Source of the DNA: an uncultured Enterobacteriaceae bacterium
GTDB taxonomy: Bacteria > Myxococcota_A > UBA9042
Direction: 5' to 3'
NCBI GenBank assembly: GCA_964438735.1
Contig: CAYTLW010000004.1
Location: forward strand, 51,953-115,952
DNA length: 64,000 nt
A program made the translations under genes and the position numbers. Below, piece after piece: positions 48,649 through 49,329 of the stretch (position 1 is its first letter; each line of letters starts with the position of its first letter). Below the pieces are notes generated by a model. It did no database searches, was not told where the DNA came from, and saw only the letters and a list, made by a program, of their open reading frames with translations.

Positions 48649-49329
48649 ATGCCGGCTACCCTCGGCCGGCACCTGCAGGGCGCCTGCCAGCTTCTGCTGT
48701 CCGAGTTGTGCGCAATGCAAGACAATCGACCATCGCCACACAACCTGCAGGTCGCGCAGGATCGCCTGGCGCAGCGGCGCGAGCATTCGGGTCTGTGGGC
48801 GCAAGTGCCAGACAGACTCCTCGAGCGCATGATACGGGCGCAGACGGTCCAGTTGATCGCGGCGTCGGTGTTCACATCGGTGCTGCTCGCCGGCGCTCTG
48901 AGCTACTTGTTCGAGTTCCTGGTCTGGGGCGAGGCTCGACACGAAGTGACCGCCCTCGTCTGCGCTGTCGCGCTCTTCGTCTCGGGCTTCGTCGCGTCCT
49001 TGATTATCATCTTCATCCAGAAGATGCGGCGCGATGAACGATCAGCGAAGGAAGCGGAGATGCGCCTGAACGACGAGCTGCGGCAAGCGCTCGCGACGAT
49101 TCGCACGCTTCGCGGCATCATCCCAATCTGCGCCTGGTGCAAGTCGGTGCGCGATGACGAAGGGTATTGGAAGCGCGTCGATACCTATATCTCCGAAAAC
49201 TCGGCGGCGAGCTTCAGTCACGGGATGTGTCCGTGCTGCGAGGAGAAGATGGCGGCCGGTGTCGACGCGATTGCAGCGTCGCCGCCGAGCGAAGACAGCC
49301 CCCTGGGCCGACGGGTCGGCAACGAATAG
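48649..49329 (+). CDS. Small membrane protein with C-terminal Cys-rich zinc-ribbon-like module (putative signalling/sensor protein)
   Basis: SD GGAGG 5 nt before the ATG at 48649. Two TM helices, a coiled-coil (KMRRDERSAKEAEMRLNDELRQALATIRTL), then GIIPICAWCKSVRDDEGYWKRVDTYISENSAASFSHGMCPCCEEK. Confidence 0.65.
   Translation: MPATLGRHLQGACQLLLSELCAMQDNRPSPHNLQVAQDRLAQRREHSGLWAQVPDRLLERMIRAQTVQLIAASVFTSVLLAGALSYLFEFLVWGEARHEVTALVCAVALFVSGFVASLIIIFIQKMRRDERSAKEAEMRLNDELRQALATIRTLRGIIPICAWCKSVRDDEGYWKRVDTYISENSAASFSHGMCPCCEEKMAAGVDAIAASPPSEDSPLGRRVGNE

Follow-up and report, generated by a model that had tools for sequence, protein, structure and literature searches.

A candidate signalling output: a small membrane-anchored protein that ends in an uncatalogued four-cysteine module

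Bacterial signalling outputs are usually listed as kinases, DNA-binding domains, cyclic-nucleotide enzymes, chemotaxis adaptors and phosphatases. What, then, is the role of a protein whose only parts besides a membrane anchor and a helix are some 45 residues with paired cysteines? The question is raised by a gene at 48649..49329 (+ strand) of a 64,000-nucleotide stretch (hereafter the window) of contig CAYTLW010000004.1, from an uncultured bacterium placed by GTDB in Myxococcota_A. The answer we favour, and to which we give an even chance, is that the gene product is a small, membrane-anchored, kinase-less dimeric signal transducer, the output of which is an uncatalogued metal-binding module with four cysteines (the Cys4 module).

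The open reading frame (ORF) comprises 226 codons and a stop codon, and a Shine–Dalgarno-like GGAGG (48639..48643, +), read directly from the sequence, lies five nucleotides upstream of the ATG. GC content at the three codon positions is 0.64, 0.46 and 0.80, a pattern matched by the neighbouring genes; this coding-type signature and the GGAGG site together indicate that the ORF is a real gene. The protein (all parts on the + strand) begins with a lineage-specific, predicted cytoplasmic tail (residues 1–64; 48649..48840), which carries an Arg-rich stretch before the first transmembrane (TM) segment. A TM hairpin follows (residues ~67–124; 48847..49020), in which hydropathy places TM1 at ~67–91 and TM2 at ~100–124, joined by a loop of 7–8 residues (GEARHE); Kyte–Doolittle 19-residue windows peak at 1.9 and 2.8 for the two TM-like segments. 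Arg and Lys cluster on the outer side of both segments, which by the positive-inside rule would place both termini in the cytoplasm and leave almost no periplasmic loop. Next comes a signalling helix, probably a coiled coil (residues 125–156; 49021..49116), delimited by the AlphaFold model, the 3–4 spacing of conserved positions and the heptad linkers described below. The Cys4 module (residues 157–203; 49117..49257) is delimited by alignments, profile match and model (predicted local distance difference test (pLDDT) 84–93), and its cysteine codons lie at 49129–49131 (C161), 49138–49140 (C164), 49228–49230 (C194) and 49237–49239 (C197). The remaining residues (204–226; 49258..49326) form a variable tail, the columns past K200 being poorly conserved; tails after the module are mostly 5–30 residues long across the family. 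The original prediction, made from the sequence alone, had described an N-terminal tail, a TM hairpin, a helix and a module of about 45 residues, and this layout is borne out, with the C-terminal peptide that it quoted located at residues 157–200 of the translated ORF. The protein has no Pfam or NCBIfam match, even at E ≤ 1, and has neither the HisKA/DHp H-box nor the HATPase_c domain of a histidine kinase. GC content is 0.565–0.62 in the module-coding part (48900–49300 of the window) versus 0.68–0.72 around it, and GC at third codon positions is 0.80 in the gene versus 0.83–0.90 in its neighbours, which is compatible with a more recent arrival of the gene at this locus.

The module belongs to a very large family. 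A profile of 25 relatives matches its region of the window protein at 118.5 bits (E = 6.3e-34), and a search with residues 135–205 matched 39 proteins of similar length at E values from 1e-23 to 1e-10. When the 25-module profile was run on a library holding one representative per 50%-identity cluster, 24,277 representative clusters reached E ≤ 1e-3 and 19,572 reached E ≤ 1e-10. Conservation was counted over 148 diverse modules filtered to at most 70% identity. C161, C164, W174, C194 and C197 are invariant; L154, P159, R168, D170, G172, Y180 and H191 are conserved in at least 90% of these modules, and K165, K166, D169, E178, S185 and K200 are further conserved polar residues. In 347 of 349 modules, exactly 29 residues separate one CxxC pair from the other. 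Where four to five cysteines had been proposed, four are thus confirmed, whereas the fifth (C196) is replaced by Glu or Asp in most relatives. The net charge on the core of the module lies between −5 and +4, the mean being −1. The hosts are of the sensor type expected by the original prediction, but their range is much wider than the delta-proteobacteria and spirochaetes that it named, extending to at least ten phyla, among them Nitrospirota, Acidobacteriota, Verrucomicrobiota, Planctomycetota, Bacteroidota, Chloroflexota, Myxococcota and Desulfobacterota. Within the window's own phylum, 41 of 201 sampled genomes carry the module, in one to eight copies each. Source databases label the host proteins by their input domain alone, for example as 'PAS domain S-box protein' or 'response regulator'.

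Where the module sits in these proteins was determined from a Pfam census of 119 members and from precomputed domains for 120 longer proteins. The end of the module lies 40–80 residues from the C terminus in nearly every protein, the exceptions being proteins in which the module is doubled. Upstream of it are found PAS, REC, HAMP, GAF, MASE1/3/6, DUF4118, PocR, dCache, CHASE3, VUPS and other domains, including the seven-transmembrane (7TM) N-terminal domain of kinases and propeller sensors, as well as plain membrane anchors. A second output domain almost never accompanies it (HATPase_c occurs beside the module in 1 of 119 scanned members). The module is therefore placed as an output domain would be, C-terminal to input or receiver domains and as the sole non-sensor domain, in line with the original prediction, in which it stands where a kinase or GGDEF output would otherwise end a sensor-type protein. 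Among 11 short relatives lacking Pfam domains, 8 have at least two TM-like segments ending 22–42 residues before the first cysteine, so that anchor, helix and module constitute a recurring minimal form, of which the window protein is an instance; the anchors themselves are unrelated to one another. About 40 proteins of 300–560 residues contain two modules (P0041–P0083, P0190/P0191). The three that were scanned (P0057, P0190 and P0191) are built as two successive REC–helix–module units, as if two tandem response-regulator genes had been fused.

The connection between input and module is regular in length. Of 104 proteins with the C-terminal PAS motif DIT.RK, 102 have a distance of 35 residues from this motif to the first cysteine, the remaining two having 28 and 42; in all 23 REC–module proteins, the conserved lysine of the REC 'KP' motif precedes the first cysteine by 41, 48 or 55 residues. 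All differences in linker length are exact heptads, the in-phase rigid coupling looked for in an output domain. In the AlphaFold model, residues 122–155 form a single continuous helix (pLDDT 93–98) running into the cysteine module, and its best-conserved positions (L140, L144, A147, I/V151, L154 and position 158, followed by C161) are spaced by three and four residues. Such a heptad pattern is known for the coiled-coil signalling helices that precede kinase and cyclase outputs. The quantization of the linkers points to coupling through a coiled coil and, as judged from these sequence patterns, argues that the input sets the orientation of each module against its twin in a parallel dimer.

What fold the module adopts was addressed by AlphaFold. 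The better model, of residues 121–212 and built from 148 relatives, has a mean pLDDT of 90.3; in it, a long helix is followed by a CxxC knuckle, a short hairpin and a short helix, before a further helix starts at the second CxxC. This order of elements fits the treble-clef class, and the predicted fold is provisionally described as treble-clef-like rather than as a classical two-hairpin zinc ribbon. The zinc ribbon-like arrangement put forward earlier would need correction, again provisionally, at the second CxxC, which in the better model lies at the start of a helix. Foldseek searches of the PDB with both models returned only matches with E > 1, the weak matches of the better model being mostly treble-clef fingers (LIM, RING, PHD, GATA and E7), and matches among viral predicted structures likewise all had E > 1. 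Pfam zinc-ribbon models reached E values of 0.007–0.3 over short stretches of isolated modules, Pfam-A down to E ≤ 10 gave nothing credible for isolated modules, and NCBIfam 20.0 contained no match to the module. The best hit of the module profile among PDB sequences (E = 0.065) was to unrelated proteins. A full-text literature search found no description of the module, and a paper on the signalling helix does not mention it. The view that the module has no assigned function therefore stands: no curated family (Pfam, NCBIfam), solved structure or paper was found, no characterized domain was matched, and the four cysteines are conserved in relatives.

Compared with known families, the module shows both likenesses and differences. 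It shares with the DHp domain of histidine kinases and with GGDEF outputs its position after PAS, REC, HAMP or GAF domains or after the last TM helix, the coupling through parallel helices with heptad-quantized linkers, and the range of input domains; unlike them, it has about 45 residues and no H-box, ATPase or cyclase fold, and it is too small for a conventional enzyme. With dimeric, protein-binding treble-clef Cys4 fingers it shares two CxxC pairs, the second at a helix start in the better model, but it differs from the ClpX zinc domain and from conserved region 3 (CR3) of E7 in having an extra short helix between the hairpin and the second knuckle and in being fused to the end of a signalling helix. 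Rubredoxin has a Cys spacing of 3, 30, 3 (CxxC, 29 residues, CxxC), identical to that of the module, and a CPxC second knuckle like that of the module, whereas in the model of the module the knuckles are separated by helices. The zinc site of the secretion ATPase EpsE and papillomavirus E6/E7 are likewise reported to follow the formula CxxC-X29-CxxC, so that the exact 29-residue gap is common to these proteins (in E7, to CR3) and the module. All these matches in spacing are treated as resemblance, not relationship. Three candidate relationships found no support: for the ClpX-type zinc-binding domain (PF06689), hhalign against 15 N-terminal domains from related genomes gave a probability of 2.5%; for rubredoxin (PF00301), hhalign gave 9.6% over 7 columns, and the Pfam model has no match anywhere in this genome; and for the ZAS anti-sigma domain (HxxxCxxC), the module has instead H-x2-C-x2-C, with no zf-HC2 match at E ≤ 10. 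Among published concepts, HalOD2 comes closest. This output of haloarchaeal response regulators, predicted to form a zinc finger, consists of a helical part followed by two conserved CXXC motifs, is confined to a few halobacteria and has a gap of 20–25 residues between these motifs (PMC5847659). Going by that description, the module differs from HalOD2: it is bacterial, has a fixed gap of 29 residues and stands behind many types of sensor.

A partner for the module was sought in gene neighbourhoods, using 80 loci from named genomes of at least ten phyla and clustering up to three neighbours per side. One cluster of neighbours recurs, in 23 of 80 loci, and the eight of its members that were scanned are all histidine kinases. 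An adjacent, co-directional kinase accompanies 10 of 24 hosts with a REC domain versus 2 of 56 hosts without one; the kinases thus recur because the host carries a REC domain, not because of the module, and REC–module genes are the last genes of histidine kinase–response regulator operons. Relatives with TM segments only adjoin unrelated genes (ABC permeases, carotenoid and pentose-phosphate genes, thioredoxins), which suggests that any partner of the module is encoded elsewhere. The genome itself holds a second copy on another contig (C86), in a PAS–module protein of 277 residues. The gene of this paralogue directly follows a gene for a SpoIIAA-like DUF7793 protein (L002:1483-2795), and a like DUF7793–module pair, sharing the HAMP-like N-terminal stretch, is present in one genome from another family (L173:1777-2640, G147:C187). 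The DUF7793-linked form may represent a partner-switching-type subfamily. DUF7793 was rejected as a general partner, as it is adjacent to the module in these two loci only and 8 of 21 genomes with DUF7793 carry the module; the link is at most a subfamily feature.

On the reading favoured here, the protein would be a parallel homodimer, each module of which would hold one metal ion, most likely zinc, through its four cysteines. Sensing of a stimulus, whether by the 64-residue N-terminal tail or in or at the membrane, would shift the register or rotation of the coiled coil, which would rearrange the two metal modules against each other. The rearranged modules might then gate the binding of a partner encoded elsewhere in the genome. 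As the charge averages −1 and fusion to membrane sensors is frequent, a protein is a more likely partner than DNA. Several points weigh against the proposal. Apart from the REC-linked histidine kinases, no conserved partner gene was found in the 80 loci. Metal binding, dimerization and topology are all inferred. The shallower of the two AlphaFold models (25 sequences, pLDDT 75) folds residues 165–176 differently, and it is this disagreement that makes the fold assignment provisional. The window protein has Asn at position 184, where 76% of the family has His. Finally, the N-terminal and TM part has no orthologue among 40 related genomes or in metagenome contigs, and hence offers no comparative handle on the input; one candidate for a full-length relative (G002:C880) was rejected, being a CHASE3-type PAS protein that has only the module in common with the window protein.

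The gene is also bracketed, as the original prediction pointed out, by a 33-bp repeat. A tandem array of 3.8 copies (48459..48585; Tandem Repeats Finder score 217, 94% matches, supported by pattern counts against shuffles) lies inside the 242-bp intergenic region that separates the module gene from a divergent radical S-adenosylmethionine (radical-SAM) gene, and one full and one half copy, identified from repeat families and pattern matches, directly follow the stop codon (49331..49371). A 14-nucleotide direct repeat, CGAATGGCGAGTTG (48608..48621), flanks the gene as well, its partner at 49323–49336 agreeing in 13 of 14 bases and overlapping the stop codon. The 33-bp unit was found nowhere in the rest of the 8.1-Mb assembly or in metagenome contigs, no Rfam family matches it, and no sigma-70-like promoter or terminator pattern was found. 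As 33 is 3 × 11, the array yields an 11-residue repeat in every frame, and all six frames are open across it (region considered on the minus strand: 48434–48655). GC content of the repeat region is 0.565, versus ~0.64–0.72 in flanking coding DNA. The repeat could be a regulatory array in a shared promoter region or a trace of the gene's arrival; both are possible.

Nucleic-acid binding is the main rival to a protein-binding output, followed by redox or metal sensing and then by a plain dimer cap. The module might be a zinc-finger output that binds DNA or RNA, its hosts being one-component or response-regulator transcription factors and the window protein a membrane-tethered one; the 33-bp repeats that bracket the gene could then be sites to which the protein itself binds. 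REC–module genes do hold the operon slot usual for DNA-binding response regulators, neighbourhoods are variable between loci, as is usual for local regulators, conservation extends to K165, K166, R168 and K200, the window gene has direct repeats on both sides, and the weak Foldseek matches to treble clefs include DNA binders (GATA and the nuclear-receptor DNA-binding domain). We nevertheless regard this as unlikely: the core charge of −1, with D169, D170 and E178 conserved, argues against a general nucleic-acid binder, the 33-bp repeat is private to one locus, and the module is frequently fused behind membrane sensors of the HAMP, MASE, dCache, CHASE3 and 7TM types, for which a DNA-binding output is rare. 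Somewhat more doubtful is that the Cys4 site is itself a redox or metal sensor (a zinc–thiolate switch, a rubredoxin-type iron site or a dimer-bridging iron–sulfur cluster), which would make the module an input or integrator. The rubredoxin-like spacing, the formula shared with EpsE and E6/E7, the near-invariant H191 three residues before the third cysteine and the anaerobic or microaerophilic habit of many host lineages (Nitrospirota, Desulfobacterota, Thermodesulfovibrionia) would fit a sensor, but homology to rubredoxin was undetected in the searches described above, the module almost always follows input or receiver domains and is heptad-locked to them in the manner of outputs, and, were it an input, its host proteins would be left without any output domain. 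It is improbable, in turn, that the module is a metal-stapled dimerization cap with no partner of its own, the host proteins serving as scaffolds, as phosphate sinks (in the REC forms) or as dominant-negative partners of coiled-coil sensors. The placement of the module exactly at the end of the coiled coil and the lack of a conserved partner gene in any neighbourhood examined are what a cap would predict, whereas the conserved polar non-ligands K165, R168, D170, E178, S185 and H191 exceed the needs of a simple staple and the strict phase of the linkers implies that the orientation of the module matters.

A further alternative, which we consider very improbable, is that the gene works with the neighbouring radical-SAM enzyme as substrate, partner or regulator, the repeat encoding a precursor, (LIHNSPFCRVP)x3, on the minus strand. 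The enzyme (489 residues; 46937..48406, −) has a CxxxCxxC motif and a Cys-rich C-terminal part that we read as SPASM-like; it falls below the cut-off of every NCBIfam model, its best weak matches being HxsC4 and TrsS. The proximity of the two divergent genes invites such a link, as do the match to HxsC-type maturases, the H-N-S found in each repeat unit and a 47-codon ORF over the repeat (48434..48577, −), which contains the frame in question and ends 28 nucleotides before the start of the enzyme gene; by hand count, GC at third positions in this frame is 64%, versus 45% and 36% in the other two of the three frames. However, this small ORF has only a GTG or TTG start, with no leader and no clear ribosome site, and neither the openness of all six frames nor the GC content of the repeat, lower than that of flanking coding DNA, singles it out as coding. 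Of 24 genomes belonging to the same family, 11 contain an orthologue of the enzyme (48–58% identity). Ten of the upstream regions contain no repeat of the 33-bp type, no small repeat ORF and no module gene, and seven of the ten instead hold a co-directional gene ending ...LRR.RLGR; a repeat-type precursor of a ribosomally synthesized and post-translationally modified peptide, with the enzyme as its maturase, was rejected as unlikely on these grounds. In a comparison aimed at an insertion of the module gene into a conserved locus, five regions of 14–19 kb around orthologous enzyme genes have no other gene in common with the window. The module gene is absent from 16 radical-SAM loci (up to 19 kb), and an orthologue of the enzyme is absent from the 80 module loci. 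Without co-occurrence across loci, the adjacency of the two genes is not a conserved association, and the link to the radical-SAM neighbour suggested at the outset is not supported.

Other genes near the signal-transducer candidate are recorded here for completeness. A hybrid histidine kinase (HisKA, HATPase_c, REC, Hpt) is encoded at 42636–44684 (−), 4 kb from the module gene; a kinase of the same architecture precedes REC–module genes in Verrucomicrobiota loci (L124–L127), and the window's module protein has no REC domain to accept a phosphoryl group. Beyond the radical-SAM gene, two overlapping ORFs (45607–46888, +), each with a bacterial PH domain (bPH_2), form a pair that resembles YdbS/YdbT-like membrane proteins. 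On the other side, 51381–54854 (+) encodes two large Cys-rich, Asp-rich repeat proteins, the second of which matches Dicty_CTDC and MopE-type metal-binding motifs; repeats of a similar kind adjoin the paralogue (L002:1-1401, contig C86) and are also present in a relative (L121).

More generally, we propose, tentatively and at slightly less than an even chance, that the module represents an undescribed and very widespread class of output: a mini-domain, stapled by metal and mounted in phase at the tip of a dimeric coiled coil, that would stand in for the kinase or cyclase outputs of sensors and response regulators in at least ten phyla and would act on a globally encoded target. Tens of thousands of protein clusters have, in the output slot, a 45-residue module that has no entry in Pfam, NCBIfam or the PDB and follows the same coiled-coil phase rules as kinases. 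The window protein, outwardly an ordinary small membrane protein and a minimal member consisting of anchor, helix and module, would be a handy subject for metal analysis, structure determination and partner fishing. If the module is truly an output, a branch of signalling in Nitrospirota, Acidobacteriota, Verrucomicrobiota, Desulfobacterota, Myxococcota and other phyla at present ends in a blank.

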